A DNA stretch of 64,000 nt from Geosiphon pyriformis uo1 (taxonomy: Eukaryota > Fungi > Glomeromycota). Within the stretch, counting starts at the first letter, position 1; every line of letters starts with the position of its first letter. Position numbers and translations under genes: made by a program. This document shows, in pieces, positions 2,724 through 36,036 of the stretch. Location: contig JAAOMT010000213.1 in the NCBI GenBank assembly GCA_016748015.1, forward strand, positions 464,485 through 528,484. Direction: 5' to 3'. Under the pieces are notes generated by a model. The model ran no database searches, had not been told where the DNA came from, and saw only the letters and a program-made list of their open reading frames with translations.

Positions 2724-3589
2724 TGTTACAAGTAATTATTTGGAGTCTCAAAGCAAATAACAAACTCATAACTTGGTGCTCAATTAATATAATAATGTTG
2801 ATTGCTAAAGATTGTTTATATCTGAAGGTTTTGGTTGAGTTTTTTGTATAATAGACAGAGATTCAATAGTTGTTTTCAGTAGCCTCCCAGAATCGCAATT
2901 CTATTAATTTTTTTTTAGCTTAGTGGTTGGCAATCCTCTGGTAAGTAATCTGTAATTCTTTTACATGCTTTATTCATTTGCAGAGGTCTTTTATTAGGCA
3001 ATCTTTGATGTCAATAATTCAGCACTTAATCCTTAATCAATTTAGTAAACAACCAAAAAAATAACAAAAGAAAATAAAAAAAACAACGAAAATAAAGAAA
3101 TAAGCCAAGGCAATTTTGCAAATTAGTATTCCATCAATAGCCATAATCAAGAGCTATTGTTTCAGTGTGGTTAAGTATGAATTACTATCAACATAAAGTG
3201 TTGATAATGGAAAGTGGATTCGAGATAATAAATTATTATTTATTGATATTTGTGATGTAAAAAGTTGCTTAGATCAAATCTAAACTGAGAGGTCTCTAAT
3301 TAAAAGATTTTGTTTTTTCTACTTCTAATGCTACTGATATATATACATAATTAAGATTCCTCAATTCCTCAATTCTTCACACCAGGAATCCTGGAATTCT
3401 TGGAATTCTGCAATTTCTTTAAGAAGAATCCTAGAATTCTGAAATCCTGCAATTCCTTGTATGAGAATTCTGAAATTTCTGAAATTCTGCAATTCCTCTG
3501 AAAGGAATCCTGGAATTTTATATTTACTATGGCTACTTCTGATTGGCTAATTTATATGCTAATATACTTTCTATATTCTATGAATAATA
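2724..3589 (-). mobile_element. Solo LTR (F family), reverse orientation
   Basis: Plus-strand termini TGTTA (2724) and TAATA (3585-3589, decayed TAACA); perfect TSD CTAT at 2720-2723 and 3590-3593; reverse-complement similarity to 686-1535. Confidence 0.92.
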
Positions 3590-7528: not shown

Positions 7529-10500
7529 CCAGTCTAGTTTGAAAGATTGCCACTTGCAATATTAGAGGGATAAACAATCCTGCCAAGCAGGATGACATTA
7601 TTTATTGGCACAAAGATATAAACAATTTGATTTCAATTTTTACTGAGACTAAGTTAAAAGACAGAGTTTGTCTTTGGATTGCCAATAAATTTAATGGCAT
7701 TCATGTTTTTACTTCTGGTTTGGATTTTGGTCACTTGAGTTTTGGTGTGGCAATTGTCATGGACAACTCTCTGGCAAGGCACGTTTGTAAGGTTTCTGAG
7801 GTGCCTGAATGGCTTTTCTCTATTAGATTACTTTTTAATAACAAACTTTCTGTTATAATTTTGGAACTGTATGCCAGCGCTTCTTCAGATGTTCAGTTTT
7901 TTTAGGCTGGCAACATCAATTTGCTAATTGCCAGGGCTGTGAACAAATCCTCCTTTATTGTGCTGAGTGGTGATTTCAATAAGAATGGTTTACATAAGAG
8001 TGCCAGTTTCAAGAAATGCTTGGACCTCAGCTTGGTTAATTCTTTAGATAGGAGCTTGTTTGCTAAAATGCCAATGTGGGCTAACTTTTGAGGTGTTTCT
8101 AAAACTATTGATTACATATTCGTTTCTTACAACTTGGTTAGTGTGGTAGTTAATTGTGATGTAGCTGATGTTGATAATCATTTTGACTCTGATCATAGAG
8201 CAGTTTCTGTGTGTGTAGGCTTGAGTGAACTATTGGATATGCATTTGAATTCTATTCACAAGCAAGTGAATAAGGATTGTTGGAAGTATGATATCAAAAA
8301 TGCTAACAATGTTAAGTAATGTGGGTTCAAAGTGTTAATGGCAGTGAATGCTGCTATGTTTTCTGAGAAGTTTGCTTCCTCTGTGGGTTTCTCTGATCTA
8401 GATTCTATGTGGGATATTGTTCATAAAGTGATGGTTTTTTCAGCTAATAATTCATTTAAGAAAAAATGGTTTAAAGGCTTTGATAACATCTTTACCAAGG
8501 ACTTTTCTAGGTTTTACAGATTGGAAATTTTGGTTTCGAGAATAGTCAAAGTGTCCCATGGCCAGAACTCTGTGAGGTTTACATCTTTGATGAGTCATTG
8601 GACTTTTTTAGACTCTGACAAAGCCTTGGCAGTACAGGTTCTTTTGGATTTTAGTACAGATTTTGATTGTGTTAGAACTGCTCTTTTTGGTGTGCGGAAA
8701 TCTTATCATGTCTCCAAACTTGCCAAATCTTTAAGAGTTCAGGAGTCAAGTATTAGGTCTGCCATTAATAAGCATATAAAGAGCTTCACTTCTGATAAGA
8801 GTCATACTATTAGGAGTGTTTTAGAGTGTCTGTTCCATAAAGTGGAATTGAATCATCTAGTTGTTGGTGACAAATTGATTCTGAAGTCTGAATTGGTTAA
8901 GACTAAGGTGGATGTAATTATGGAGGGGTGGACTAAGAGACACAAGGTAGTTTCTGATATCTTTAGTAAATGGTCTTATCAATACCAGTCTCTGGAATAT
9001 GTTTTTAATGGTGCTTTTTCAGGTGTGATGTAGCCAGTTGTTTTCGATAAATTGTTTGGTGTAATTTTTGATCTGCCTGATGGCAAAGCTGGTGGCCTTT
9101 CCAGTATTCCCAATAAATTTTGGAAACACTGTGACAACTCTGTTATAGATATGCTTTTGGAGCTTTTGAACACTTGTTTAATTATTGAATCTGTGCCTAA
9201 TTTTTGAAAGGAGGCTTGGGTCTTGATGATCTCTAAACCATACAAATGGGAGAAGGTTCTCATGAACACTCATTTTCACAGTTGGCTCAGTAATAAAAAA
9301 TGCTCTGGAGAAAAACTGCAAACTCTGGCTAGTTTTACAGGACATGTGGAAGGCATATGATTCTGTTGGTTGGAAGCATCTTAAGAGAAATTTGATTAAA
9401 ATTAAAATGTATAGCAAGTTCATACATTTTTTTGGTAGTATTCATTGCAACCACGTTAACAAGGTTATGACTGACTTTGGCTTAACTGATGAATATTATG
9501 TTCATGATAGCTTGGATTAAGGGGAGGTTTTCTCGTTACTTCTCTGGCACATATTCTATGATCCTCTCCTTTGTGAGGTTAAGAGACAGGAAAGTGTGTG
9601 TGAGTACAGATTAAATTCGCATTTCATTTCAAAAAATGGTCATTTAGAACTCATTGCTGGGTTGTCTTCTTTTTTTGCTGCTGAAGCTTTTGTCAATGAT
9701 ACAATTTGGGTTGGTAGCAGTCAGAGTGCTACTCAGTATATTCTCAATATTGCCAGTGAATTTTTTTGGGTCAATGATATTTCTATTAATATAGACAAGA
9801 CTGTTGTCATCCCTATTAATTGCAAAGTTGGTAGTCCTTCTTTGGTTATTAGTGGCTTACCCATTGTTATTGTGAAAAGAGAGGAATTTCATCAATATCT
9901 GGGCATCTATCTTTCAACTAAGAGTCTTTCAAAGTCTAGCTTGGCCAAAGCACAATCAGATGTTTGGTTTTTCTCTAACCTTGTGCTAAGAAAGGCCATT
10001 TCAGATAAACAATTTTTGTACTTGGTTTTGGCTGTTCTCTATTCTATTGTGAGCTATAGGACTCAATTCAGTTTCATACCTTTTGATGTATACAACAAAT
10101 AGAATACTTTGGTTCAGAAAAACCTTAAATTGAAATCCAGCCTTCCTCTTGACTTCCCAAATGATTCGATCCACCACCCTTTTTTTTATGGTTTGAAGTC
10201 TTTTGAGCAGGTGCAATCTGAAGACAAAATAGTCTTGCTTGTGAGTTTTGCAAACTCTGGTGGGACTTTGGGTCATATGTTCTCTCATAGGTCTTATGAC
10301 TTGTAAGTTTTGTGTTGGCGTCTTGTTCACCCTCTGAGTTTCTGAGTGTGTGTTTACATTAGTCCTTTGAATAATTTTTTAGCTGGTGTGGTCTGTATTT
10401 TGGCAAAAAATAATCTTTCTCTGAGTGGATCTTTGGGCAATCTATTTTGTCATCGGAGTGGGATCTCTATGTTAGTGGTTCTTGGAGAAGCTAAGTTTTG

Positions 10501-11309
10501 TGCATGTCTCTCCTCTTTACATTAGTATAGTGTTGTCTTTGTAGATCAGCTCTATAATTGCTATGATGCCGTTTTTAATTAGAAAACTTTTAAGTGCTGG
10601 AAGAGGTTGGATCCTCGTGGTCCGGTTCCTGAGTGGTTTGGTCTTTCTGTCACCTTTCTCAGTAATGTGACTTCTTTTTTTCCTGGTCTATTTCTCCTTG
10701 GGGGTGTTGGTAAGCTTTTGAACATTCTGGAGTCTCAAGAATTTAAGTTGGTATGTGATCAGTTGTCTTGTGTTAGTACTAGTAGTCTGTCTGTTTATAC
10801 GGATGGTTCTCTAAGAAATTTGGGCACCATACAGAGGAAGACTGATGCTGCTGTTTTTTTTGATAACATTGGTTTGGGTTTGGGCATAAGAGTCACTGGC
10901 TTGTTGTCTTCCACTTTGGCGGAGCTACAGGCCATAGCTCTGGCATTGGAATGTGTTCCTTCTCTTAGCTCAGTTTGCTTACACTCTGATAGTCAGACTG
11001 CTCTGGATGTATGCAAATTGGAGCTGTGTTTTATTTGTTTGGATTTTCACATTCAGTGTTGGGTTGAACATCAGCATATTGTGAATATTATTCATTGCAA
11101 AAATTTGAGAGTGAATTGGATTAAAGTGAAAAATCACTCAGGTGTTGTGGAGAATGATTGTGCAGATACCCTTGCTGCTGTTGCCTTTGACTCTGATTGG
11201 CATCTTCTCCCTCGTTTAAAGAACCATTGTCTTTTAGCTGGTAGTGAGCTTGTTTCTGGTAATTCTAGACATTTTGTCTAAAATGTTTTTAGATCAGTTT
11301 ATTGTGCAT
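7525..11309 (+). pseudogene. pol: LINE ORF2, 5' part: APE endonuclease, reverse transcriptase, RNase H
   Basis: APE motifs ATCNIRG, TETKL, SGDFN, IDYIFV, SDH; RT motifs LQDMWKAYDSV, GEVFSLLLW, AFVNDT (decayed FVDD); RNase H motifs VYTDGS, AELQAI, SDSQ, KVKNHSG. Confidence 0.92.
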
Positions 11310-12293
11310 TGTTACCAGACAAAATTAGAAATATTGTTTAGCATAAAATTACCCTTATAAATCTTATTATTAATTAGCATATATTATTATTTCAAATTAT
11401 CACTTATTACATTAGCAAAATGTTCAAAATTATTATTTAATTAATAACTCAATTTGTACATAACACAAATATAACTTAAGTGCGATGATCAATCATGCAA
11501 TACTCTGAAATATGTAACATTCAAAAGTTTGCCAAAATTTGTAAAAATTTGCCAAAATAATTGATAGTTTACTGAAATATCTAATAGTTTGCAGAAATAA
11601 CTTGTAGTTTGCCGAAATGTATTTTTAGTTTAGCAAAATTGTAGAAAAGAGCAAAGTTCAAGTTCATAGAATAGTATTACGACAAGTTGTATAAAAAAAG
11701 AGCTTCTTTCTTTGAAAAAATGTATCTTACTTCAAATTTAATAATTAGAATCATTCTTTACACACAAAAACAAAATAAATATCAAATAAATTCAAAATAC
11801 CAAATTCTTAATTATTTCTCTTAAAATTAACCAATTCCTACTAACAGTTTGAAATTGATTAGCTACCAATTTCAGTAGACTGTTAAAGCACTTCCAGGCC
11901 TGGATCCAAAACGACTTCCATAAATTATCAGTTTTACTTTTTCTTTTACATTTCTTTTATTCTCTTTTTTTTCTTGTTATAAATCATTTGGGTAGTCTAC
12001 AGACAAGAATTCCTGTAGAAGAGTTGACTTTCACAGCAAAGTAACTACACATCTTAGTGAGCTTCCAAATGAGCAATTCCTGGGAAAGAGTTGACGTTTA
12101 CTACAACATAACTATACAAAGTAACTGGCATAGAATTGGTCATTCCACTTATAAGCCCAGCAGTTCAAATTATAGGAAATAATTTGAAGATAAATTCAGT
12201 TATTGGAGGTTCAAATACTTCCCATAATCATGAATTAACAGCATTACAACAAACATACAAGAACTAAAAAGAGACCAAAAACCTCTGGTAACA
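11310..12293 (+). repeat. 5' LTR of element A
   Basis: TGTTA...TAACA; direct repeat of 20214-21197; ~20-bp gtttgccgaaat repeats at ~11525-11650; TATAAAA at 11690. Confidence 0.95.
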
Positions 12294-12295
12294 TT

Positions 12296-12310
12296 TGGTG
12301 CTCTTCTACA
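12296..12310 (+). promoter_or_regulatory. Primer-binding site of A (TGGTGCTCTT)
   Basis: TGG 2 nt after the LTR end; TGGTGCT also occurs in C, D, E and F; complementary to a tRNA ending in AGCACCA (elongator tRNA-Met-like, inferred). Confidence 0.75.
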
Positions 12311-12337
12311 GAAACAACACAGCAAAACAACTTCAAA

Positions 12338-15300
12338 GTGGCGACCACACCAGACACAACAACTCTAGAGTATTACTAATCAATTTACACCCACTGCAAG
12401 CAAAGATTCAACATTCCAGATGGAATTGAAGTTGTCAAGAAATCAGTATACCAATACATTGAAAACTGCATCAACAATTATCTTTTTGGAAATTACAATA
12501 TCTCAAAAGTTAGAAGCAACTTTTACAATAATTTAGTACACTATTCCCAGTTGGAAACTGAAGACCTTAACAGTAAAACACTTGCCACTTACTTTCAAAA
12601 ACTAAATTTTAACATTATCAAGTACTATGAAAAAACATATCTAGTGCAGTCTCAATACTCCATTGATTTTGAATCAGAAACAGAAACAAGCAACAAAGGC
12701 AAACAAAAATTGAAGCAATATTCAAAAACCACCCCAAATACCCCAATACTACCAAAAACAACTGCCAAACACTTACAAACACCTGAACAAGGAACCAGTT
12801 CAAAACTTCCACTTACTATCACATCTTTTTCAGCTTCACTTGCACAGGCACAAACACCTAATTTACCCTTAAATTGATTTGCAAGACTAGAAGATTTTAC
12901 ATCACCCAGAAGTCTCACCAGACAACAAGAACCCCTTCAAACTAGTTCTAATCTCCTTGACTTTCTAGCTGAAAATCGAAGTGAACACTCTGAGACAGCA
13001 GTGAACAAAGAAAACAACTCTGAAATATCTGAAGAAGAATCAATAGACAGTGAAAACAAAGAAGACAAAATGACAGCATACATCACAAAAATCCCTGAAT
13101 TCAATGGAGAAAACATTGAGACCAGTCCCCAAGAATGGCTTGACCAAGTTACTAAAGCTGGAAAGGCAAATGGATGAAATGCTGCCAGAATATTAAGAAC
13201 AATTCTCTACTTTCTTAAAGGAACAGCAGGTGAATGGTTTGAAAACTTAACCACCCCTTTTAATGACTAGACAGCTTTCAAAACTGCCTTCTTAAAACAA
13301 TTCACTGATAACAATACCTCAATCACTCTTTGAAATTGTTTTTGCAATATCAAACAAGAACCCTCCAAATCTGTTATGACTTATATTGGAAAATTCAACA
13401 AACTTCTCAGATGAATTCGCCAACTTGAAACTAATGATTATTATTCTGATGCTCAAATCTTGGATCAATTTATCACTGGTTTAAAAGATAAACTGATTAA
13501 AAAGGTTTGCCCACATGCCCCAGAAGATTTAAACTCTGCCATTCAGCATGCAAAAAAATATAAAATGGCCATGGAAGAAGCCAATCGTACAAAACTCATG
13601 AACTTAGTCATTGGAAAAACCAGCTCAGCAGCTGAAGAGAAAATTGACCAACTCACAAAGAAAGTTGAAAACTATTTCACCAACCAACAACAATAGCAAT
13701 CCCAAAGATATCAACCACCCTAAAGATGGAATCAAAACAGCTTCACATCACTCTCTAATAACCAGTCTCAGAGTTGCCATTACTGTGAAATTCTTGGCCA
13801 CTGGAAAAAAGATTGCAGAAAGCTACAATGAAACCAACAAAATAGGAGTAATCAACATTACCCTCCACCACAACAATTTTATTATCAACCACCACCACCA
13901 GCTTACTATCCACCAAGACCCCAATATCAAAGTAACTATTATCAGCCTGTCTCACAGCCAATTCAACAGCAATACCAACAATTACCCACACAACATTATC
14001 AAGTGCCTGCTTGAAGATTAATTCCACAAAATCAATTTACACCACAAAACCAATACCAAGTAAACAACAATAGAATCAATTCAAACAACCAATTAGTTCT
14101 CCAAAATCCAGCTCAGCCAAAACCCACCTATTATTATACTCAACCTAGCTATTTTATAATACCTGAAGAACAGGATTTTCACCAAACTGCATTCTTGGAA
14201 GGTAGAGCTGCAGCACAACAACAAAACTCTTTCTATACTCCTACCACAATCCCACCAGCCAGAATTGCTGAAAATGCCAACTTTTCAGACATATTCCCTT
14301 TTGAGTTTAAAGCAAATGAGTCACCATTCCTGTTTAGCAATGCGGCCACCAACGAACAAAAAGCAATCACTGCTATGTATACTGAAGCAGAAGTCGAAGG
14401 AAAGGCAATTCGTTTGATCCTAGACAGTGGATTTGCCGGAAGCATCATCACCTACCAGTTAATACAACAGTTAAAGAGAAATGTTGACTGACCAGCTCAA
14501 ACAGTAATTGTTACTGCCGATAGCATAAAAAAGACTCCAGTAGAAAAAATTGACAATTTTTTGTTCACTCTTGATGGAATCACCATTCCAGTCAAAGTTT
14601 TTGTAATAGATGTGCCCCAGTACCAAGCTTTTGTCAGAAATGATTGGCTTCAAAAAGCCAATACTAATCTGAATTGGAAGACACAAGAGTTAACAATCTC
14701 CTACTAAGGACAACATGCCCAGGTACCTGCCACTTGTGGTACATTCAACAAATGCTCCAAAAAAGCCCTGGCTTTTGAATTCGAACTGGAAGAAAAAAAG
14801 CCCATCATTAAAACATTTATGACACTTGGATCAACCTCCAATTGAGCTGATAAAACTAAACAACAGTACTTTTCAACAAATAATTCTCTTGAAACAAAAG
14901 AACTAGTAACAACCGAATGGAATGTTCCCTATTCAAAACCAGAACCACGAAAACAACGCCCTTATATTCCACTCAAATGTAAGGACTGCCACAAGAAACT
15001 CTCTTCAATGGGAGCCTGCATTTCACCTGAAGAAGAATATGAAAATCATACTTGTTATTACTGCAAGGCTTGCCATAGAGAATGATGGGGCCATCTAATA
15101 AAAAGAAGCGGAAAATGGGATAACACCCCTTGTTTAACTTGTGGAGATATGCTACCAGAAGAATGCAATTGAATTGATGTAGCAATGAGAGGAGGAGTCT
15201 GCAATCAGACCTGCCAATATGCTTTATCAATTGCAAAAAAAGTAAAAAGAGAAACACCTTTTAATACGGCATACAACAGTGCTCTCAACAAACTTTATTA

Positions 15301-17971
15301 CTACTTCTATAATGCTGAGATGATTTTTGACCTAGCAATGGCATAAATTAATGGAGCTACCAAAGAAAATGTCCGTCAAATGAAGGAAGCAAAATACATT
15401 GAATACACCATAGAATTAGCTGAATTTGATTATGAAGATGAAGTAGAAGTCTACCACTAAATTGCAAGTCACACTTACCCAACCCAAAAAGCTCAAATTC
15501 AACAATTAGAGCAAATGAACATTAGACTATGCAAAGAATGCATTATGTCTTGTGATGAACAGTAGTGTCCTGAATGCTATGCTCTTAGCATTCCTCTGCC
15601 CAGTAAAAACAATGAGAACAAAATTGAATTTGGAAAACCTGAAGCAACAGAAGAAATTGAAACAACACCCATCTATCTTATCAAAAACCAGCCTGCCTTA
15701 CAACTCAAATACTTCAACAACAATGAACAAGGAATAAAACCCGAAAAAGCACATGAAATTGATGCTGGATATGACCTAAGATATCCAGACAAGGATACTC
15801 TCATTCTCAAACCCAAATCTCTTACAAAAATCAACCTTAAAATTGCTCTCAAAATCCCACCAGGAGCAATGGTTCAAATTGCCTCCCGGTTCTCTCTGGC
15901 AAGCAAAAAAATCAATGTTAGAGGAGGAATAATTGATGCTGGATATACTGGTGACATAACAGTAATACTCTAAAATGAAACTGACAAGCCATTTAAAATT
16001 GAACATGCCGAGAAAATTGCCCAAGCCATTTATTTACCCTTAATCAACATTTCGGGTTTACAATTAGTCAATAAAAGAGAACTATTGAGAAAAAGTAAAA
16101 AAAGAATCCAAGGTTTTGGTTCAATTGGACAATTCACAGTTTTAGTAAACATAGCCCTCAATGAACAGAAAGAATTTCACCAGATTTTACAACTTCCACA
16201 ACCAATTACTATTTCACCCTTTGGAGAATACCCTGAAATTTACACTTGTAAAAAGCTAACAACCACACAACAAATTTTTGAGTCCAATGAACAAATCTGC
16301 TTGGAATATAATATCTCGATTCCAAACATTTATATTCCAAAAGGAACAAAGAAAATCTAAGTTACTTTTTACAATCCCAACAATTTCCCCATAGTTTTAT
16401 TAAATAACTTAGAAATTGGAGTTATTCACAGTAATATCTTTTAACAAGAATTACCCCAAACAATTCCCAATTTCTCTGAAATTATTGGACATTTACTACC
16501 AAAAATCAACCCAAACACCAGCTCTAAAAACTACCATGTTGTTATAGAAAAACTATCTCGAATCAACATAAAACAACTTAAACCACAACAACAAAACCAG
16601 CTTAAAGAGCTAATTGCAGAATTTGCCGATATCTTTGCCGAAAACAACAATAACTTAGGAAGAACTGATTTGGTTCAACACCAAATCTATACAGGAGATG
16701 CCAAACCAAGATAACAACAAGCCTACTGAGTTGCTCCAAAAAGTTACCAATTTATCTGAGAAGAAGTACAACGGATGCTTAACAATAGGCTTATTCAACC
16801 ATCAATGAGTCCATGGGCCTCGCTTGTGGTTCTAGTTAAGAAGAAAAATGGAAAGATATGATTTTGTGTTGATTATCAACAACTCAACAGCATCACCATG
16901 GGAGATGCCTACTCTCTTCCCCAAATTGATGACATGTTAGATGCCCTTGGAAAATCCAAATACTTTTCAACACTAGATCTAGAAAGCGGATACTGGCAAG
17001 TTGCCATGGATCCCAAAGATTGTCCCAAAACAGCCTTCACAACCCAAGAAGAAAACTACAAATTCAATATAATGCCTTTTGAATTATGCAATGCACCAGC
17101 AATATTTCAGAGATTAATAGATATTGTGTACAAAGGACTCCTTTGGAAGTCAGTAGTCATTTATCTTGACGATACTGATATTTATTCTTCATCATTCGAA
17201 TTACACTTAAAACACCTGCAAGAAGTATTTCAACAATTATGAAAAGCAGGACTGAAACTCAACATCGAAAAATTCTACTTTGGAAAAACAAGCTTGGCCT
17301 TTCTTGGTCACATTGTTAGTAAATATAGAATCAAACTGGACCCTGAAAAAATCAGCACTGTCAAAAACTTCAAAACTCTTCAAAATACTACAGAACTAAG
17401 AGGATTTATAGGGTTAGCCTTCTACTATCGGAAGTTTATCAAAGGATTCTCAGAAATTGCAAAACCTCTCAACCAGCTTATCACCAAAAACATCGAATAC
17501 AAATAGACTGCTGAACACCAAAATGCATTTGAAATCCTCAAAGAAAAACTAACCACAGCTCCAATTCTTGCCTACCCAGATTTCAGCAACCAATTCGCGT
17601 TAGCAACAGATGCCTCTTATACTGCCTTTGGTGCCATCCTATCACAGTTAAATGACAATAGAAATGAGCAAGTAATTGCTTATGCTAGCAAAACATTGAA
17701 GCCAGCTGAAAAGAACTACCCTGCAACAGAATTAGAAACTGCAGCAGTAATCTGGGCCTTATATCACTTCAATCTTTACCTCAGACCCAAAGAATTTGAT
17801 ATTATCACTGATAATATTGGACTCAAATGGCTTCAAAACAAAAACACTCAGCTGAATGCCAAACAAATCCGATGGACAGAATTTTAAGCCAACTACCAAT
17901 ACATTGTACATCACAAATCAGGAAAACTCCACACCAATGTTGATTGTTTTTCAAAAATGAGACAAGATTAG
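12338..17971 (+). pseudogene. gag-pol: Element A Gag-Pol: N-extension, capsid, CCHC, protease, Cys-rich module, dUTPase, RT, RNase H; one frame with nonsense mutations
   Basis: ORF fragments 12551, 13460, 14195, 16085, 16898, 17294 and 17696 share one frame; CHYCEILGHWKKDC, LILDSG, FSTLDLESGYWQ, IYLDDT, LATDAS; stop TAG at 17969-17971. Confidence 0.92.
15735..16130 (+). pseudogene. dut: dUTPase domain in Pol of A
   Basis: Trimeric dUTPase motifs DAGYDL, IASRFSL, GGIIDAGYTG, IAQAI, GFGS. Confidence 0.9.
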
Positions 17972-18017
17972 AACATAAAAACAACACCTATTTGAATTAA
18001 CAACAAAACAACAAACA

Positions 18018-19403
18018 ATGAATTCTGAAAACTACAACAATCTTAAACAATATCTGGAGACATTAACAATCCCAACAGATTGGTCCCCAGATAAAAAACA
18101 TTGGTTACAACAACAAGCCAAACAATACTTCTTATACAACAACATTATTTATTATTAAAACTTCAGAAACCAAGACAATCCGCTCAGATTAATACAAGAA
18201 CATAAAAAAAAAACCATTTTATATAACATGCACTCAGACCTTTTATCAGCACATCTAGGAAAAGACAGCACCACCCAGAGAACACTAGCATATTATTTTT
18301 GGCCTCAAATAAGAAAAGGCATTCATGAATATGTTAAGTCTTGTAATAGTTGTTAAAGAAGAGGAGGAACTCGCCCTACAGAACCTTTAAACTTAATCAA
18401 AGTTGGACAGCCATTTGACCGAGTTGGTATCGATTTAGTTGAACCACTCCCTATCACAAACCAAGAAAACCATTATATTGCAGTAGCTGTAGACTATCTC
18501 ACCAAATAGCCTGAAGCCAGAGTCATTCAATGAGCAGATGCGAAATCAGTAGCAAACTTCATCTACAAAGACATCATTTGTAGACATAAATGCCCAATAG
18601 AACTTTTATCTGATCAAGGAACACATTTCGTGAACAATTTAATCCAGGAAATTTGTGAACAATTTAATGTCAAGAGACCATTATCTTTGCCCTACCATCC
18701 ACAAACAAATAGACTTGTAGAACATTTTAACAGAACATTGTGTAAATCATTAGCCAAAGTCTCAACTGATTTTAAGCAAGAATGGGATCTCTTTATTCCA
18801 TCAGTGTTACTGGCATATAGAACACTAAAACAAGATATCACAAAACACACACCATTTGATTAAACTTATAGAAGGACAGCAATATTACCAATTAGTTTCA
18901 CTGTAGAAACATACTCAACACAACCAATCGATAAAAACAATTTCCAGGAAACACTACAACAAAAAGCCTACACTCTGCTTAGCACATTGGAAGGAAAACG
19001 ACAAATAGCAGCCACCCATATTAAACACTCTCAAGCTTAACAAAAAGAACAGCATGACGACAAATTGCCTCCAGTTACCAATGGATTTAAAATTGGAAAC
19101 AAAGTTCTCTTACACAGAACTAAAGCTGAAAAACAATGGAGTGGAAAATTTGAAAATAAATGAGATGAACCATTCTTTATCTATAAAGTCCTAAACAACA
19201 GATCATATAAGCTAAGACTTGATAACAAAATCCTAGCAAAAGTTGCACATGGAGATCGTTTGAAACACTATAATTCTAGAAACAATCCTGAACCATTAAT
19301 TCTACAAATTGGTACACATTCCCTTTTAATCAATCCTGAAGATATTCCCCGAAAATTAGAACCAATAGTTGACATTGAACAACCTCCCAACTTGAACACT
19401 TAA
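18018..19403 (+). pseudogene. int: Stand-alone integrase ORF of A (~461 codons, with stops)
   Basis: Own ATG 46 nt after the Pol stop, in another frame; HHCC region, VGIDLV, SDQGTHF, YHPQTN, GPY/F-like C-terminus; no chromodomain. Confidence 0.9.
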
Positions 19404-19525
19404 TTTGAATTTATCATTATAGTTATATCATTATAATTTAGAAACAATCTCACAAAAACAAAACAAAAATAACATAAAAACCCATACACCAAAAATAATT
19501 TTCTTTTATTTTCAAATCTCTTATA

Positions 19526-20245
19526 ATGTCTATTCCTCAAAACATTCAACAATTATCCCAAAAACTAATGTTAGCTTTAAAAACAATACTCGAATTATCT
19601 ATTACTGTTATTAGAAACCACATTAATTATACCCAAACAGAAGTAGTTACAAATTTAGCTCCAAATGCACAAAAATATCACCTGTATAAGAAGAACACAA
19701 GAAGTTATTCTGGAATTCACCTGCCAGAACTTCTAAAGCTTGCTTTAAGAGAAAACTTAATGCTCACTTCTATTAGTATTCCACCGAATGCTACTATTCA
19801 ACAAAAACTTCAACTGTGTCTTAATGAAAAAAACTATGACTATACTCCAATATATAAATATTTCTACATTGGAAAAACACTTCATGAACGAAAACAGGAG
19901 CTTATAGCAGCAAACCTCACAAAAAAAGCTATTCGGAAACAACTCCACAATAAATTCAAGACAACAGCTGGACCTACAAACAGTTATTATAAACTAAGAG
20001 CTGCTCTTAGACTTTATGACCTATTCCACACCTGTGAAAACGTCCTACAAAACCCAATTTTACAGCCTTTGAAGATTCAATACATTGGAAAGCTCACAGA
20101 ACTGAAATTTCAACAATTTTCAGACCAAATTTCTTCAATAATTTTGGATTATTATCTGAAAATTACAGACAGTACTTGGACTTTGATGGAGCTCAATCTT
20201 AAAGAGGAGGTTATGTTACCAGACAAAATTAGAGATATTGTTTAG
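19526..20245 (+). CDS. Accessory ORF3 of element A, 239 aa, unknown function (open frame)
   Basis: Uninterrupted ATG-to-stop ORF between integrase and the 3' LTR; homologous to the ORFs at 28097-28804, 53454-54089 and 60216-60567; runs through the PPT into U3. Confidence 0.8.
   Translation: MSIPQNIQQLSQKLMLALKTILELSITVIRNHINYTQTEVVTNLAPNAQKYHLYKKNTRSYSGIHLPELLKLALRENLMLTSISIPPNATIQQKLQLCLNEKNYDYTPIYKYFYIGKTLHERKQELIAANLTKKAIRKQLHNKFKTTAGPTNSYYKLRAALRLYDLFHTCENVLQNPILQPLKIQYIGKLTELKFQQFSDQISSIILDYYLKITDSTWTLMELNLKEEVMLPDKIRDIV
20201..20213 (+). promoter_or_regulatory. Polypurine tract of A
   Basis: AAAGAGGAGG-TTA immediately before the 3' LTR. Confidence 0.85.
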
Positions 20246-21197
20246 CATAAAATTACTCTTATAAATCTTATCATTAATTAGCATATATTATCACTTTAAA
20301 TTATCACTTATTACATTAACAAAATGTTCAAAATTATTATTTAATTAATAACTCAATTTGTATATAACACAAATGTAACCTAAGTGCGATGATCAATCAT
20401 GCAATACCCTGAAATATGTAACATTTAAAAGTTTGCCAAAATTTGTAAAAATTTGCCAAAATAATTGATAGTTCACTGAAATATCTAATAGTTCACAGAA
20501 ATAACTTGTAGTTTGCTGAAATGTATTTTTAGTTCAGTGAAATTGTAGAAAAAAGCAAAGTTCAAGTTCATAGAATAGTGTTATGACAAGTTGTATAAAA
20601 GAAGAGCTTCTCTTTTCAAGAAAATGTATCTTACTTCAGATTTAATAATTAGAATCATCCTTTACACACAAAAACAAAATAAATATCAAATAAATTCGAA
20701 AAGCCAAATTCTTAATTATTTCCCTTGAAATTAACCAATTTCTACTAACAGTTTGAAATTGATTAGCTACCAATTTCAGTAGACTGTTAAAGCACTTCTA
20801 GGCCTGGATCTGAAACAACTTTCATAAATTATCAGTTTTACTTTTTCTTTTACATTTCTTTTATTTTCTTTTTTTTCTTGTTATAAATTATTTGGGTAGC
20901 CTACAGACAAGAATTCCTGTAGAAGAGTTGACTTTCACAGCAAAGTAACTACACATCTTAGTGAGCTTCCAGACAAGCAATTTCTGGGAAAAAGTTGACG
21001 TTTATTACAACGTAACTATATAAAGTAACTGGCATAGAATTGGCCATTCCACTTATAAGCCCAGCAGTTCAAATTATAGGAGATAATTTGAAAATAAATT
21101 CAGTTATTGGAGGTTCAAACACTTCTCATAATCGTGAATTAACAGCATTAAAACAAACATACAAGAGCTAAGAAAAGACCAAAAATCTCCAGTAACA
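20214..21197 (+). repeat. 3' LTR of element A
   Basis: Direct repeat of 11310-12293. Confidence 0.95.
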
Positions 21198-22024: not shown

Positions 22025-22891
22025 TGTTACAGTTTAAGAATTTAGCAAAAGAATCATAAAAATAATATAAACTATTCAATCATAATATAGCACAGTAATA
22101 ATCTTAAAAAGGTAATGATTAACATAGTAGCAAACCCCATCTTGCAATAGTGGCAAGCACCAGTTCACAATAGCAGCCAACACCAACTGGTGATAGCAGC
22201 AAACACCAGGTTGAAATATCAAAAAGAAAGTATTACAATATGTTTTTTCGTAAAACTACAAACATGTATATATACAGTAGCTTTAATATTGAAAAAAGTC
22301 AATCAAGTAATAAAAATCATAACTTATCAAGCAATAAATCCAATTTATTCAACAAACTCCACTTTAAATCGTATTTTTAAATTAAATATCTCAAGAAACC
22401 TTTAAATCAAAAAAAAAAATGAAAAAAAATATTTAAAACTGAATTATCACAACTCCAAAGTAATAAGAAACTCACTTGTGTTAATTATTGAATAAAACTA
22501 TCATTCATCAGTTGAATTTCTTGGAAAAGTAATTCCTGATCAACATTGCTACTAATTGATAAAAGCTTTATTGTGAGAATTAAGAAAAGCACTAAAGACC
22601 ATTAACATTCCGTGTTTCTAGATTAGAGAAACACATCAGGCAATTGCAAGGATAGCCTCAGAGAAGACTCCAGACAGTGGGTAGATTTCAGTTCAGCCTC
22701 TGAGAAGGAATACATAAACACACACAACAATCAGGAATTGAAAAATAACTTACATTATGACACTAAAGAGAAAGCCTTCAGTATAACAGTGCTATTATCA
22801 CACAAATAGAATTAAAGAACTCACAAGAGACTGATTGCAATTAAAATGGGATATCGACAATTAAATATAACAAGAAAACCATCCCATAACA
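22025..22891 (+). repeat. 5' LTR of element B
   Basis: TGTTA...TAACA; repeat of 38805-39678; tagtagcaaacacc-type repeats at ~22125-22215. Confidence 0.93.
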
Positions 22892-22973
22892 TTTGGTGAA
22901 CCCTACGAAAAAAAAAAATCAAAAAGAAAATAATAATTAGCAATAATTCATTGCTAAAAAGGAAGAGACAAAA

Positions 22974-25900
22974 GTGGTGACAAAAACCCCTAATCTTATT
23001 GTTCTTGAATTTTGCTGTGCTATTTACACACAAAATCAAAGTGATCTTGGATTACCAGAAGAGTGTTGTCCAGCAGAATCTGCCTTTATTTATTATATCA
23101 ATGCCAGAATAAATTATCATATAGGAAAGGAAGAAGAACCACACAATGCAAAACTTGGATTGTATAAAGAATTATTACAATACACTACAAAGGAAGTAGT
23201 AGTAATAGCTGCAACTATTGTCAAAATTCATTGAAAAATTGAACAATACGCCAATAAAAATTTTCTAATATCTACAGAAAACACTAGGGAACGCACCAAC
23301 AAAACCAAAGAAAATTTAGAAACTAATCAGGAAAGTAACCAGCAAAAACTAGGAACACCTGCTCAAACACCAAAGAAAACTGTTATTCAATCAATAAAAA
23401 AACAACATATTTATTTACCAGAAAATAAATCATACCATTTTTCACCAGAAAATAAGATACAAATTCCATTAGGAGCTGCATCATTATTAACATTAACTCC
23501 ACAAACACCAAAAACTCCTAGTTATATTAATAAAATTAAACAATATAACTGGGAAGACATACCAATTACAGGAGAATATTCATCACTATTCTAAAACCCT
23601 CTTTTTCAGCCAAAATTTGGAATGGGGTTTGAAAACCGTGAAGAGAAGTCTGAATTGAAATCCAAAAAAAAGATCAGTGAAAAAACAATCACAAGACTGG
23701 TCACTGGAACAAGCAGCCAGTCCAAAAACTAAAAAACTTGTGATCAAGAAGAAGAACCGGATATAAGGGAAGCCATCTTTAGGAATGCTCAAGGAAATAT
23801 CATCCCACCTTCTCTTAGACCAATAAGTCTACCAGCAAAAAATGGCAATAAAATAACCACACCATACATTGCAAGACTAACAGATTTCTTAGGAGAAGAA
23901 GAAGAAACAGATGTGTACACATGGTTCAAAGAAGCACAAAAAGCCATCCAGGCAAATAACTGGAATGACCAAAGAGCAATTCAAACATTACTTTTCTTCC
24001 TGAAAGGCACAACTAACTCATGGTATCAAAGCCTGAAAACAAAACCCACAAGCTTTGCTGAATTTAAAAATGCACTTCTGGAGTATTTTAGTGACCCAAA
24101 TGCCATAATCCAACTACAGAACAAATTCAATACTATTAAGCAAGGTACTGGTGAAACTGTCACCCAATACCTTGCTCAATTCAATCAAATTCGCCGTCAG
24201 ATTGAAATGATTGAACAAGGATACTACACTGATTCTCAGGTTTTAAATCAGTTTATTAGAAGATTAAAAAGCAGCATTTTAGGAAGAGTATGTCCTGCCT
24301 ACCCTAATTCCTTACCAGAAGCCATTACGCTTACCAGAGCCCTTGAATCAGCTGAGAAAGAAGCTAACCATAGTCAAATGGTTAATATAGTAATGGAGAA
24401 AAATAAGACAGAAACATTAGAGAAAAAAGTAACGCAATTAAGAGAGGAACTCTTTAAGAAAATAGAAAGTTATCTCATCCTGAATCCAAGAAAAAATACA
24501 TACCAAAAAAGACGCAGCCAGAAAGTCAGTGACAGTCAAAATAATCGCTCATTGTGCCAGGAATTCAGAACAGAAACACACACCTGCCATTTTTGCAAAT
24601 GCGTAGGATATTTGATTAGTCAATGTCGAACACGAATAATGCAAGAAGCACACAAAAATAATTATTACACGCCACCCCAAATGCTCAGAAACCAGTACAT
24701 GCCAATACTATGCCAATATCCTACCACGTATCAAAATCAAGGAACTTACCAGCAACAGCCCATGATAGCCAATCTGAATTGGCATCCCAAGGCCCGAAAT
24801 CAGCCTATGTGGAACCATAATGCATTGGTCCAGAGGAATCTAAACTGCACCAGAACCAGTTAGCAAACCAATCCAAACTACCAAAATTATTAACAAACTT
24901 ACCTTAATATACCAGAAAATCTGATCATCAGAAACAATGACAGTAGAAACATAAACAGAACCAAAAATTTCTTTAACAAATTGAGCCAAACAATACCACC
25001 AGCAGTTGCCACCAAAGATAGCAGCCTCGCAGCTATTTTTCCTTTTGAATTAGAAGAAAACAAGACTATGTTCAGTGGAGCAGCATTGGACAAAAAATGC
25101 CCAATTACTGCTATGTATACAGAAGCCACTGTAAACAATACTCCAATCAAACTTATCTTAGACAGTGAATCCACTAAAAGCATTGTAATGCTTCAACTTG
25201 TAAACCAATTGGGTTTCAAAGTTGATCATGCCGTGATGTCCCAAATCATAACAGCCAATGGAAGTACAAAGCTGCCTCATGGTGAAATTGACTCATTTCC
25301 TTTCAAAATTAACAGCATAGTAATACCTACAAAAGTATTAGTAATAAACGCTACACAATATTAAGTATTAGTAGGGAATAACAGGCTAACAAAAGCCAAT
25401 GCCACCTTAGACTGGACCACCCAAGAGCTTCTGATCAATTATAATGGCCACCAGGCCAGAATTTCAGCCACTTGTGGCCACTTCCAAAAACCCAGTGCCA
25501 ACCAAAGACCTACCTTCAAATTTGAGGAAAATCCAGCACTACCAGCCATTGAAATTTATCAACTTTTTTGTGCTAATGACCAAAGAACAGGACTACCAAC
25601 CATACCAACATGAACCAGCGAAGAAAGATCTGAATGGAACCAGATAAGTCCACAAAGAAACCACCAGCGATGCAGACCAAAACTAGAATGCTCAGTTTGC
25701 AAAAAGAAACTCTCGTCTATGGCTATGTGCAGTGCACCAGATGAAGACCCAAGAAACCCCATCCACTACTATTGTAACCATTGTAACAAAGAAAAATACA
25801 GTTACCCAGAAAGACATGGAAAATGAGACGAGGAATTATGTCTCACTTGTGGAGAACTGTTACCAAGAGAGTATGACTGGAACGACATACTAAGCAGAGG

Positions 25901-27103
25901 AGGAATGTGTGATGCAACTTGCCAATACATGATCCTCATCTGTGACTGGGTAAGAGGAGGAACACCATTCAAAACAGCATTCAACAGAGCATTAAAAAGA
26001 CTACAGCACTACTCACACGACGAGGACGAGTTGTACAACACCACATAAGCCAAAGTAAGAGGAGGAACCACCAAAGAAATACGATATTAGAAAGAGTTAG
26101 CCAAAGTAGCCGATGAAGTTGCCAGCTACAACATGTTCAACCCAGTGGATAAATTCTAGGACTACTACCAACAACTATGCCCCATTCAACAAGAGCAAGA
26201 ACAATACCTTGCCCAAATCAACACTTACTTCTGCAAAAACTGTCTTATCCCGTGCCAAAATCAGTACTGTAAAGAGTGTTAAGATGAAAGGGACTTAGAA
26301 AGAAAAATAGAAATTAAGAATCAGCAGTCTCAAAATCAATCAATAAACCAACAAGACTTACCTAATGGTCCCGAGTCAGAAAAATTTGTAGCTTATACTG
26401 ACCTAGAACAGATGATTGACATTTGATACTTTGACAATGGGCACTTAGAAATAATACCTGAAAGAGCCCATCCAACTGATGCTGGATTTGATCTATGTTA
26501 TCTAGAAGACCAATCCACAATGTTACTACCCAGGAGCATTACCAAAATTGACCTAAAAATAGTGGTTGAAATTCCGCCAGGAATAATGGTTCAAATAGCA
26601 TCATGATCAAGCCTCGCGAAAAAAGGAATAAGCATTCAAGGAGAAGTAATTGACTCCAGATAAACTAGAAATTTGATGGTTTTGCTACAGAACAATTCAG
26701 AAAAGCCTTATACCATTGAATCTAAGGAAAAGATTGCACAAGCAATTTTCCTACTATTGGTAAAAATTGGGAAATTTGTGCCAATGGAAAATTATAAGGA
26801 ATTGTCACAAACAATGAGAGGAACTTTTGGTTTTGGATTGACAGAAAAAGGAATTGAAGCAAATATCACTAAAACAATAGAGGAAAAAGGCAAAGTAATT
26901 AAAACTGAGCAGTCTATCATGCTCCTACCATATGGAAAATCAGAAATAAGAATAAAAAAGACAATTAAAGAAAAAGACCTAATATTTAAGCCCTACTCAG
27001 AAACTTGTCAACAGTTTCTCATAGGACTTACTAACCTTTTTATTCTAGCTGATAAAGCTCAATAGATAAAAATTCCTATTGCAAACACTACAGAAGAACC
27101 CGT
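22974..27103 (+). pseudogene. gag-pol: Element B Gag-Pol, 5' part (Gag, protease, Cys-rich module, dUTPase ~26450-26850)
   Basis: Opens at AAAGTGG; capsid ANNWNDQRAIQ; CHFCKCVGYLISQC; LILDSE; CSVC..CNHC..CLTC; DAGFDL, IAQAIF, GTFGFG. Confidence 0.9.
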
Positions 27104-28116
27104 TGTTACTGGAGGTTTTTGGTCTCTTTTTTTAAATGTTGGTAATGTTGATTTGCTGTGAATTCACGTTCTCAGGAAGTAGTTGAACCTCCAATAACTG
27201 AATTTATCTTTAAATTATCTTTTATAATTTGAACTTGCTGGGCTTATAAGTAGAATGGCCAATTCTGTGCCAGTTACTTTATGTAGTTATGTTGTAGTAA
27301 ATGTCAACTCTTTTTCAGGAATTGCTCGTCTGGAAGCTCACTAAAATGTATAGTTACTTTGTTGTAAAAGTCAACTCTTCTACAGGAATCTTGTTTGTAG
27401 ACTACCCTAATAATTGTAATAAGAAAAGAAAAGAAAAATAAAAAAAATGTAAAAAAAATAGAATTTTGTCAAGAGAAACGTTTTCTATTCAGGCCTGGAG
27501 TCACTAACAGTTTACTGAAATGGGTAGCTAATCAATTTTAAAACATTAGTTGGGTTTTGAGGATTTTCTAAGTGCAATAATTTAAAGAGTTTGGTTTTTC
27601 GAATTATTTGATATTTATTTCTTTTTGTGTGTGTAGCAATGGTTCTAAGTGATAAATCTAAAGTAAGATACATTTTTCAGAAGAGAAAAGCTCTTTTTTT
27701 ATACAACTTGTTGTAGTACTAGTCTATGAACTTGCACTTTTTCTCTTTGCTCAAATTTCAGCAAACTAAAGATACATTTTGATGAACTACAAGTTATTTT
27801 GCTGAACTATTGATTAATTTGGGTGAACTATTCATAATTTTGACGAATTTCTGTAAATTTCAGCAAATTTCTTATAAATTTCGGCAAATTTCTGTAAATT
27901 TTGGCGAATTTTTAAATGTTACAAAGTTCAAAGTATTGTGTAATTTAATCATCCTACTTTCTGTTATACTAATTAGATTATTTTAATTGAATTGTGATAT
28001 GTGATAATTGATTAAATAATAAATGATAATTTAAAATAATATTAATATACTAATGAATTATAGAAATTATAAGAGTAATTTTATGCTAATTAATAGCTAA
28101 AATTCTATTGGTAATA
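27104..28116 (-). repeat. 3' LTR of element C
   Basis: Repeat of 36037-37029 with one extra ~20-bp U3 unit. Confidence 0.93.
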
Positions 28117-28804
28117 TAATCTCCTCCTCAAGACTGAGCTCCATCGAAGTCCAAGCACTATCTGTAATATTGAGATAGTGATCTAAAATAATTAAAGTAA
28201 TCTGGTCTGAAAATTGTTGAAATTTCAGTTCTGTGAGTTTGCCAATGTATTGGACTTTTATTGGTTGCAGTATTGAATTTTGTAGAACATTTTCACAAGT
28301 ATTAAACAAGTCATAGAGTTTAAGAGCTGCTCTAAGTTTGTAGCGAGTGTTTGTTGGTCCAGCTGCTGTTTTGAATTCATTGTGAATTTGTTTTTGTATA
28401 ATTTTAGGAGTGAGATTTGTTGCTTCAAGTTCCAGTTTTTGTTCATAAAGTGTTTTTCCAATTTGAAAGTATTTATAGATAGGGGTGTGTTCATTGTTCT
28501 GTTCATTAAGAAGTAGTAGAAGTTTTTGTTGCATTGTAGCATTTGGTGAAATGTCAATAGGGGCAATTAAAAGATTTTTTTTTAGTGCCTGCTTCAAAAG
28601 TCTTGGTAATCTATTCTCAGAGTAACTTCTTGTTTTTCTTTTATAGGGGTGATAGTTCTGTAAATGATTTGCTACTAAGACTGTAGTTTCTTTCTGAATG
28701 TAATTAATTTGACTTCCATTAATCGTTATAGATAAGTTAGGGAGTGTTTTCAAGGCTAACATTAATTTTTGGGATATTTGTTAAATATTTTGGGGAATAA
28801 TCAT
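28097..28804 (-). pseudogene. Accessory ORF3 of element C (one nonsense codon near the N-terminus)
   Basis: MIIPQNI*QISQKL followed by a 221-aa open frame; clear homolog of A ORF3. Confidence 0.8.
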
Positions 28805-28946
28805 GATAAAATTGACTAATTATGAAAAGAGAAAATAAAGAAAATTATTTTTGGATATGGGGTTTTTATTTGTTTTTGGGTTTGGGTGTTTTGTAATTAT
28901 TTACTATTTTTGTCTTTGTGTTTTTATTAAAAAATTATTGTAAAAT

Positions 28947-30332
28947 TTAAGTGTTCAAGTTTGGTTGTTGTTCTATTATAATTATTGGTTCTAAATTTTA
29001 GGGAATATCTTCAGAATTAATTAAAGGGGAATGTATACCAATTTGTGGAATTAATGGTTCAGAATTGTTTCTGGAATGATAGTGTTTCAATCTGTTTCTA
29101 TGTGCAACTTTTGCTAATATTTTGTTATTAAGTCTTAACTTATATGATCTATTGCCTAGAATTTCATAAATATAAAATGGTCCATCCTATTTGTTTTCAA
29201 ATTTCCCACTCCATTGTTTTTCAGCCTTAGTTCTGTGTAAGAGAACTTTATTTCCAACTTTAAATTCGTTGGTAATAGATGGTAATTTGTTGTCATGTTT
29301 TTCTTTTTGTTGAGCTTGGGAATGTTCAATATGAGTTGCTGCTATTTTTTTTTTTCTTCCAGTGTACTAAGAAGAGTGTAGGCTCTTTTTTGGAGTGTCT
29401 TTTGAAAGTTTTCTTCATTGATTGGTTGCACTGGGTATGTTTCCACTGTGAAATTAATTGGTAATGTTGCTGTCCTTCTATAAGTAAGATCAAATGGTGT
29501 GTGTTTCATAGTATCTTGTTTTAGTGTTCTGTATGCTAGTAACACTGATGGAATAAAAATATTTCATTTCTGGTCAAAATTTGTTGAGACTTTGGCTAAA
29601 GATTCACACAATGTTCTATTGAACTGTTCTACAAGTTCATTTGTTTGAGGGTAATAAGATAATGATAGAGGTCTTTTGACATTGAACCATTCACAAATTT
29701 TTTGTATCAAGTTGTTCACAAAATGTGTTTTTTGATCAGATAAGAGTTCAATTGGGCATCCATGTCTACAGATAATGTCTTCATAGATGAAATTTGCTAC
29801 TGATTTTGCATCTGCTCTTTGGATGGCTCTAGCTTCAGGCCATTTGGTAAGATAATTCACTGCAACTGCAATATAACGATTTCCTTGGGTTGTGATAGGT
29901 AATGGTCTGACTAAATCAATTCCAACTCTGTCAAAAGGTTGTCCAACTTTGATTGGATTTAGAGGTTCTGTGGGGTGAGTTCTTCCTCTTCTTTGACAAT
30001 TATCACAAGATTCTACATATTGTTAAATGTTTTTTTGCATGTGGAGCCAAAAAATAATGTTCAAGGGTTCTTTGAATTGTTTCCTCTTTTCCCAAGTGTG
30101 CTAAAGACAGATCTGTGTACATGTTGTATAAAATTGTTTCTTTTTCATTCTCTTGTACTAATCTGAGTGGCTGGTTTGGTTTTCTGTGATTTTTATAATA
30201 GATTTTGTTCTGGTGTATGAAATATTGTTTTAATTGGTGTTGTAAGTGGTGTTTTTCACTTGGAGACCAGTTTTTTGGCATGGTAAAAGTCTCCAAATAA
30301 TTTTTAAGATTGCTGTAGTTTCTGAGATCCAT
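28947..30332 (-). pseudogene. int: Stand-alone integrase ORF of C
   Basis: Starts MDLRNYSNLKNYL; YLTKWPEA, SDQKTHF, YPQTN; same 1386-nt length as in A. Confidence 0.9.
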
Positions 30333-30389
30333 TCTTGTTTGGTTATTTTGTTGGTAAGTTGGTAAATTGTAGTGGAATTGTTGTTGGTA

Positions 30390-33300
30390 TTAATTTTGTC
30401 TCATTCTTGAGAGGCTATCAACATTGGTATGTAGTTTTCCTGGTTTGTAGTGTACAATATATTTGTAGTCTGTTAAGAAGTTATTCCATCAAGACTGTTT
30501 GGCACTTTGTTCAGTTTTCTTTTTATTAAGCCATTTGAGGCCAATGTTATTCGTTATTATGTCAAATTCTTTTCCATTCTTCAGATATTGTTGAAAATGT
30601 TTAAGAGCCCAAATAACTACAGCAGCTTCTAATTCAGTTGAGCCATATTTGAGTTCTGTTGGCTTGAGTGTTCTGCTGACATAGGCAATAACTTGTTCTT
30701 GGCCATTTTCATCCAATTGTGATAAGATGGCACCAAATGCTATGTGTGAGGCATCAGTGGCTAATTGGAATCATTTGTTGAAGTCTGAGTAAGCAAGAAC
30801 TGGGGCTGTTGTCAATTTTGTTTTGAGAATTTCAAAAGCTTTTTGTTGTTTTTCAGTCCATTTGTATGGTACGTTTTTGTTGGTAAGATAATTGAATGGT
30901 TTGGCAATTTCTGAGAATTTTTTTATGAATTTTTGATAATAAGAGGCTAATCCCACAAATCCTTTTAGTTCTGTAGTATTTCTGGGGGTTTGAAAGTTTT
31001 TGACAGCACTGATTGTTCCTGGATTTGGTTTGATTTCATCTTTACTAACTATGTGTCCAAGAAAGATTAAGCTTGTTTTTCTAAAGTGACATTTCTCAAT
31101 ATTTAACTTTAATCCTGCTTTCCATAATCATTGAAAAACTTCTCGCAAGTAAATGAGATGGGCTTCAAAGCTTGGTAAGTATACATCAGTATTATCAAGA
31201 TAAACAACTACTAATTGCCATAAAAGCCCTTCATAGACAACATCCATAAGTCACTGAAATGTTGCTGGTGCATTGCAAAGTCCAAAAGGCATAACATTAA
31301 ACTCATAATTTCCCTCTTGAGTGGTAAATGCTGTTTTGGGTCTATCTTTTGGGTCCATTTCGACTTGCCAGTATCCACTTTCCAGGTCTAAAGTTGAAAA
31401 AAACTTGGCTTTTCCTAGAGCATCTAGCATGTCATCAATTCTTGGAAGAGAGTAGATATCTCCAATTATAACACTATTCAGTTGTTTATAATCAACACAG
31501 AATCTGATTTTTCCATTTTTTTTTTAACTAAAACTACTGGTGAGGCCCAAAGATTTCTTGATGGTTGAATCAATCCATTATTGAGCATTCTTTGGATTTC
31601 TTCTCTAATGAATTGGGGGCTGGCAGATGGCACTCAATAAGCTTGTTGACGTTTTGGTAGAGCATCTTCTGTATGGATCTAATGTTGAACAATGTCTGTT
31701 TTTCCCAAGTCATTGTTGTCTTTTGCAAATATATCTGCAAATTCAGCTATCAATTGTTTCAATTGTCTTTGTTGTTGAGGTTCTAAGGGACTCATATTGA
31801 TTTGAGAGAGTTTTTCTTCCAACAAGTGGTAGTTTTCAGTAGTGGAAATAATATTTGGATTTGGGAGTAGAGTGTGCTTTACAATTTCGATGAAATTAGA
31901 GACAATTTGAGGGTTTTCATCTTGAAAGATATTGCTATGTATGATTCCAATTTCTAATTTGTTTAATAAAACAATAGAGTAATTATTGGGGTTGTAGAAT
32001 GTAACTTGAAATTTTTTCATTCCTTTGGGAATATAAACGTTTGGAATTGATATTTCATGTTTCAAACAGATTTGTTCATTGGATTCAAAGATTTGTTGTG
32101 TAATGGTGGGTTTTGAGCAAGCGTAAATTTTGTGATGTTCTCCAAAAAGTGAAATGGTAATTGGCTGAGGAAGTTGAAGAATTTGGTGAGATTCATTTTG
32201 TGTATTAAGAACTATGTTTACTGGGACTGTAAATCGTCCAGTTGAACCAAAACTTTGAGTTCCTCTTTCACTTTTTCCCAATTGTTCTCTGTTGTTTACT
32301 GATTGTAAACCCGAAATGTTGATTAAGGGTAAGTAAATTGCTTGAGCAATTTTTTCAGCATGTTCAATTTTGAATAGTTTGTCTGTCTCATTCTGTAACA
32401 TGATGGTAATGTCTCCAGTGTATTCTGCATCTATAACTCTTCCTCTAATATTGATTCTTTTGCTTGCCAATGATGATCTGGAGGCAATTTGAACCATTGC
32501 TTCTGGTGGAATTTTAAGAGCAATTTTGAGATTGATTTTTGTCAAAGACTTTGGTTGGAGAATCAAAGTATCTTTTTCTGGGTATTTTAGGTCATATCCA
32601 GCATCAATTTCGTATGCTTTTTCTGGTCTGATTCCTTGGCCATGGTTGTCAAAATATTTAAGTTGTAGAGGTGGTTGTTTTTCAAGAAGATAAATGGGAG
32701 TGGTTGGTAGTTCTTCTACTAGTTCAAATACTCTAAATTCGATTTCATTTTCATCATTCTCATCTGGCAGAGGAATGCTAAGAGCATAACATTCTAAATA
32801 CCATTGGTCATTACAAGGCATAACACATTCTTCACACAATTGAATGTTTATTTGCTCTAATCATTGAATTTGAGCTTCTTTGGTCGGATATATGTGGCTT
32901 GCATTTGGTGGTAGGTTTCTACTTCATTTTTATAATCAAATCCAGCTAATTCTATAGTATACTCAATATATTCAGCTTCTTTCATTTGGCAGACATCTTC
33001 TTGGGTGGCTCCATTTATCAATGCCATTGCTAGATCAAAAATCATTTCAGCATCATGAGGGTAGTGGTAAAGTTTATTGAGAGCACTGTTGTATGCTGCA
33101 TCAAATGGTGTTCCTCTTCTGACTTTTTCCGAAATTGATAGAGCACATACTCCTCCTTTTATTGCTACATCAATCCAATTGCATTCTTCTGATAGCATTT
33201 CTCCACATGTAAGGCAAGGTGTGTTGTCCCATTTTCTACTTCTTTTTGGAGATTCAAATCGTTCTTTATGGCATGCTTTGCAAAAGTAACAGGTACGAGT

Positions 33301-35991: not shown

Positions 35992-36036
35992 TTTGAATTT
36001 GTTGTTGCTGTGTTATTTCTATGGGAAAGCACCAAA

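Follow-up and report, generated by a model that had tools for sequence, protein, structure and literature searches.

A selected, soluble-looking orphan gene in the env position of three-ORF Ty3/Gypsy elements of Geosiphon pyriformis

Retrotransposons commonly carry additional ORFs between pol and the 3′ LTR, and according to the available text of one study (PMC7264820) the function of these ORFs is mostly unknown. The locus studied here raises this question for an ORF (ORF3) that occupies the env position and follows the integrase gene in LTR elements of Geosiphon pyriformis. The window, which is the whole analyzed stretch of 64,000 nucleotides, contains nested LTR retrotransposons of the families A to F (Table 1). 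Their assignment to the Ty3/Gypsy group is based on paired LTRs (TG...CA), a primer-binding site and a polypurine tract (PPT), and on the Pfam domains Ty3_capsid, Asp_protease_2, RVT_1 and rve in the ORFs of B, C and E; for the decayed frame of A, the domain names are borrowed from these equivalent ORFs. RNase H was located by tblastn with L001, a contig carrying a related element. The order gag-PR-RT-RH-IN with a Ty3-type capsid holds, and a dUTPase is positioned between PR and RT.

Table 1. Positions of elements, ORF3 copies and associated features in the window (L001 positions refer to that contig).
Feature	Position	Strand	Remarks
Element A	11310-21197	+	
5′ LTR of A	11310-12293	+	TG...CA; TGG primer-binding-site-like sequence next
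gag-PR-dUTPase-RT-RNase H frame of A	12380-17971	+	decayed; terminal stop common to other families
Integrase of A	18018-19403	+	separate ORF; own ATG 46 nt past RNase H stop, other frame
Integrase-ORF3 spacer of A	19404-19525	+	AUG-free, G-poor (2% G)
ORF3 of A	19526-20245	+	open, 239 aa; start 122 nt past integrase stop
3′ LTR of A	20214-21197	+	93.4% identity to 5′ LTR
U3 repeat array of A	20428-20545	+	period ~20 bp; candidate binding sites
TATA-like box, A 3′ LTR	20594-20600	+	downstream of array
Element B	22032-39678		contains C
Element C	27104-37035	-	within B
ORF3 of C	28097-28804	-	235 codons in one frame; single stop, codon 8; 68% identity to A
ORF3 tail of B	38633-38788	+	~residue 170 onward; deletion joins tail to spacer after RNase H
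Element D	41766-61627		contains E
Element E	44863-54986		within D
ORF3 of E	53454-54089	+	211 codons, one frame, 4 internal stops; ~22% identity to A
ORF3 remnant of D	60216-60567	+	N-terminal part plus C-terminal tail; core lost; frameshifted
Element F			start only in window
RNase H stop/integrase start sites	17969-18020; 30390-30330 (-); ~52002; ~58797; L001:772-801		
Other U3 arrays	11522-11618; 27764-27911; 38904-38989; 41830-42035; 44935-45077; 61703-61813		just upstream of TATA-like box, as in every LTR family

The LTR pairs within the window differ by 5.5-12.5%, and 358 of the 371 differences are transitions. The window and L001 alike have an observed/expected CpG ratio of about 0.2, and the mutations are almost purely C-to-T/G-to-A, a pattern expected of methylation-driven decay. 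By eye, the target-site duplications flanking A, C and E look 4 bp long if transitions are allowed. A long N-terminal region precedes the gag capsid domain (12380-12877, 35482-36012 (-), 45733-46149 and 62485-63024); no significant Pfam match was obtained in the two copies scanned. Pfam likewise gave no significant match for a Cys-rich stretch with several CxxC pairs between the protease and the dUTPase (~32860-33400 (-) and the equivalent region of A). Element A starts 29 bp past a decayed element (6567-11281), which is probably a non-LTR retrotransposon with an RNase H domain (Pfam 1e-11) and, by eye, an endonuclease-like start and an RT-like middle. Two inverted F-like LTR copies with 78% identity (684-1543 and 2716-3591) and an integrase fragment (~423-744 (-)) are located near the start of the window.

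The initial annotation described homologous ORFs after integrase in A, C, E, D and B. The open frame of A and its homologues at the same place in C and E bear this out, while the labels of the other two copies are corrected here. D, regarded as a short form, is instead a deletion derivative, in which the N-terminal part and ~20 codons at the C-terminal end remain and a core of ~130 codons is missing, as judged against the protein P0202. The B copy had rightly been described as a tail only. It shares 83% identity over 48 aa with P0150 and, judging by this match, is a genuine ORF3 tail, the deletion having taken the integrase and the first ~170 ORF3 codons. The ORF3 of A extends across the PPT, its last 32 nt lying within the 3′ LTR, whereas those of E and D stop just ahead of the PPT. 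The N-terminal motif proposed for the family is present but loose: the N of I-x-h-N is missing from A, and in the D family the P is replaced by S. The reported Lys/Gln richness is mild (9.6% K and 7.1% Q in A), and with pI values of 5.4 and 5.9 two homologues from metagenomes are acidic.

Homology between the families is beyond chance, since HMMs that leave a family out still recover the copies of the window. An HMM built without the A/C sequences finds A at E 1e-9 and C at E 5e-14. A second one, derived from two metagenome proteins only, finds A (1e-24), C (3e-25) and E (2e-14) and misses B (E 0.79) and D. Among 372 candidates, 204 homologues were obtained at E 0.001 or better; the best 120 comprise 119 G. 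pyriformis proteins and the product of one window ORF. In a profile search of 1.84 billion representatives, 72 matches were obtained, and the 20 that were looked up belong to G. pyriformis (17) or are ENA or JGI proteins (P0152, P0158 and P0191). A deeper search yielded 58 proteins among 7417 candidates, namely P0158 and 57 from G. pyriformis. Six ORF3 families can be distinguished (A, C, E, B-type, D-type and one more), with 22-43% identity outside the A/C pair, in elements whose RT/RH identity is only 44-58%. P0158 is encoded on L001 in a nearly intact RT-RH, IN, ORF3, PPT, LTR order. This indicates that neither ORF3 nor its position is peculiar to a single genome. Well over 100 annotated G. 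pyriformis "hypothetical proteins" (within P0002-P0236) are ORF3 copies or chimeric models across retrotransposon pieces, and the gene count of this fungus is inflated as a result.

ORF3 is under purifying selection. The dN/dS between A and C is 0.21 (bootstrap 0.14-0.32), far from the value near 1 named at the outset as refuting the initial reading. Codons 1-100 have a dN/dS of 0.26 and codons 101-215 one of 0.13, and the mismatches at codon positions 1, 2 and 3 number 54, 35 and 91. In the two alternative forward frames the values are 0.68 and 1.41. In the same pair, the integrase core, the RNase H region and PR-dUTPase have values of 0.15, 0.17 and 0.19, respectively (one mis-framed row left out). 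All these values include neutral decay after insertion and thus understate the constraint. Deeper ORF3 pairs yield 0.46-0.59, near saturation. Among A, C, E and L001 with the A/C pair excluded, ORF3 identity is 22-32% compared with 58-75% for integrase; by this measure ORF3 diverges far faster than integrase across distant families. The earlier impression that ORF3 is less disrupted than gag-pol is not supported: observed versus expected stops are 0 versus 2.7 in A, 1 versus 1.4 in C and 4 versus 3-5 in E. The deficit in A has P ~0.05, but A was chosen for being open.

No transmembrane run was found, in agreement with the initial annotation: the highest 19-residue Kyte-Doolittle mean is 0.27-1.29 in nine of nine proteins, and ORF3 contains only 1-2 Cys. 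The transmembrane anchor or fusion peptide expected of an Env is therefore lacking. A confident match to a known Env or a chromodomain, which would have spoken against the proposal, did not appear: the Pfam and fold matches listed include no Env and no chromodomain, and the confidently modelled core of ORF3 is all-helical rather than beta-rich. ORF3 is a selected, soluble-looking, non-Env orphan third gene inherited with the three-ORF Gypsy clade. Its proposed role as a soluble regulator is upheld as far as selection, apparent solubility and the absence of Env features are concerned; no Tas or TAV family or fold was among the Pfam and fold matches listed, and no specific type of regulator is picked out.

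The structure model of ORF3 is confident and has no clear structural relative. Profile comparison with the ParB/KorB-type helix-turn-helix, DUF3102 (PF11300) and the N-terminal domain of DUF1016 gave E values of 0.027, 0.089 and 0.078, none of them significant; these families were picked after the motif had been seen. Control pairs scored 2e-4 (DUF1016_N and ParB), 0.0056 (DUF3102 and DUF1016_N) and 0.031 (DUF3102 and ParB). In all three families, the IG-x2-L, the G-turn, the R-L-Y helix and a short helix align in register with ORF3. Helix-turn-helix rows rank 10, 22 and 33 in the fold search, level with unrelated helical proteins and in a range classed as a common arrangement, and no such family was found by Pfam for 30 ORF3 members (among 25 of 45 families listed).

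The second pointer comes from the LTRs. Unbiased autocorrelation of the 180 bp before the TATA-like box reveals periodicity in all 11 LTR copies of the window (z 4.9-10.6) and none downstream of the box (z 2.1 or less); TRF recovers the same arrays. The arrays are family-specific, with periods of 20-23, 30 and 40. The L001 LTR lacks periodicity (z 0.9), and a motif chosen by eye is scattered over it in just five copies. The core of the A array reads TT(CG)N(CG)AAA with CpG decay allowed. The A/C pattern has 3-7 copies in each A or C LTR and is absent from the remaining eight, while the E pattern has nine in each E LTR and at most one elsewhere; both patterns were read from the LTRs themselves, which makes the nulls post hoc. 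Since the A and C LTRs are ~76% identical, the motif common to both may reflect plain descent. A strict palindrome test is passed by D, E and F and failed by A, B, C and L001; with CpG decay taken into account, the A/C core can be read as a short palindrome. With periods close to multiples of 10 bp (B, at 23, being the exception), the sites would all face the same side of the helix. LTR elements often carry U3 repeats, to which host factors may bind, and such factors or slippage could account for the arrays just as well.

The weak helix-turn-helix-like core and the U3 arrays point, both indirectly, to the transcriptional option. We tentatively propose, with somewhat less than even confidence, that ORF3 is a soluble helical DNA-binding protein acting on the repeat array of its own LTR. 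In the predicted helical core, helices 126-141 and 146-160 (P0158 numbering) would form a helix-turn-helix directed at the U3 repeats of its own element, and binding would activate transcription or keep it unsilenced. ORF3 would thus work like Tas without being a Tas homologue. The acidity of the two metagenome homologues and the missing periodicity in L001 speak against this proposal. ParB/DUF3102-type helix-turn-helix domains are otherwise known from prokaryotic mobile elements. An extended version of the proposal, which we consider unlikely, is that the three-cistron fungal clade (gag-PR-dUTPase-RT-RH, integrase, ORF3) has a sequence-specific transcription factor of its own, of this type, which has co-diverged by family with CpG-containing U3 operator arrays. 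Such a pair would be a private, methylation-sensitive positive-feedback switch, as in a complex retrovirus without Env.

The organization of the integrase gene bears on two other explanations. The RNase H stop lies at a shared motif in all six elements compared (A, B, C, D, E and L001). In the five that keep integrase (all but B), its ATG follows after a short, A/C-rich spacer of 10-57 nt, out of frame in A and D, and judging from this arrangement integrase would not be part of a Pol polyprotein in these five; seven stops were counted in a stretch of the A integrase. A stand-alone integrase is the second feature at odds with the textbook layout, and it poses the problem of how this enzyme is translated and packaged. 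A separate integrase ORF with its own ATG leaves the element with a downstream-cistron problem to solve and favours the translational option, in which ORF3 acts on the element RNA, either as a TAV-like aid to the integrase and ORF3 cistrons or as a CERV/Rev-like export factor. The IN-to-ORF3 spacers of A and E, which are AUG-free and A-rich, suit such a role, for which the available text on CERV of a nematode LTR element (PMC10309623) offers a precedent. However, no such family was among the Pfam matches listed, the L001 spacer contains two AUGs in 316 nt, and reinitiation over short spacers or subgenomic RNAs could suffice without a helper; we regard this role as somewhat unlikely. Alternatively, ORF3 could bring the free-standing integrase, which would need another way into the particle when outside Gag-Pol, into that particle, or tether the integration complex to DNA. 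ORF3 accompanies the separate-integrase layout in every complete case seen, and a helix-turn-helix-like core would also suit tethering, but ORF3 diverges far faster than integrase, and we regard this role as rather improbable.

The decay of the elements in the host by transitions and their CpG depletion would fit a counter-defence protein, such as an RNA-silencing suppressor. In a related fungus, CG sites are methylated and small RNAs arise from Gypsy elements, according to the available text (10.1101/2021.03.30.436303), and the fast divergence between families would suit an arms race. On the other hand, the Pfam and fold matches listed include neither a dsRNA-binding nor a known suppressor family, the selection between A and C is purifying rather than diversifying, and the option gains nothing specific from the data; it is improbable. 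That ORF3 is a degenerate Env, a coat protein captured from an RNA virus or cargo without a function is very improbable despite the env position and the listing of closterovirus coat protein (PF01785) in both Atlas searches (0.91 and 0.93; 148 and 156 of 256 features), as ORF3 has no hydrophobic run and few Cys, no coat protein appears among the Pfam matches listed or the best 50 BFVD rows (Foldseek; none at E 0.001 or better), and the dN/dS excludes neutral cargo.

The proposed transcriptional role can be set against known systems. Caulimovirus TAV is an element-encoded soluble expression regulator in a reverse-transcribing element, and foamy virus Tas binds its own LTR. No homology of ORF3 to TAV was detected, nor to CERV of the C. 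elegans element Cer1, described as another soluble element-encoded expression regulator in the available text (PMC10309623). In plant LTR retrotransposons, additional sense ORFs located after pol and ahead of the 3′ LTR resemble ORF3 in position, orientation and conservation within families; as far as they are described in the available text (PMC7264820), they are called env-like and some have transmembrane domains, whereas ORF3 has none, is fungal and follows a separate integrase. Bdelloid rotifer LTR elements also bear a dUTPase and a third ORF, in some cases of 210-230 aa. The types listed in the available part of that report (PMC5408684) are Env, GDSL, DEDDy, CC and TM; the fungal ORF3 has no GDSL, DEDDy or TM match, and is one protein family kept across element families rather than a set of family-specific captures. 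The available text of a survey of fungal chromodomain Gypsy elements (PMC2864245) places the dUTPase between PR and RT in one family and draws an "add. ORF" of unknown function for some. An extra ORF in this position is thus of a known kind; the literature searched contained neither this ORF3 family nor its combination with a separate integrase nor the candidate operator arrays. LTR elements make up 41.2% of the G. pyriformis genome, as given in the available text (PMC11952901), and a self-encoded activator could help to explain this expansion. One orphan family has been kept across very divergent elements, and the family-specific LTR arrays provide a concrete test of its function. As a working model we propose Tas, likewise the product of a 3′-terminal accessory ORF beside the 3′ LTR in the available text (PMC7828637): no sequence or fold similarity to it was found and the ORF3 elements are without env, yet ORF3 may transactivate its own element in a comparable manner.
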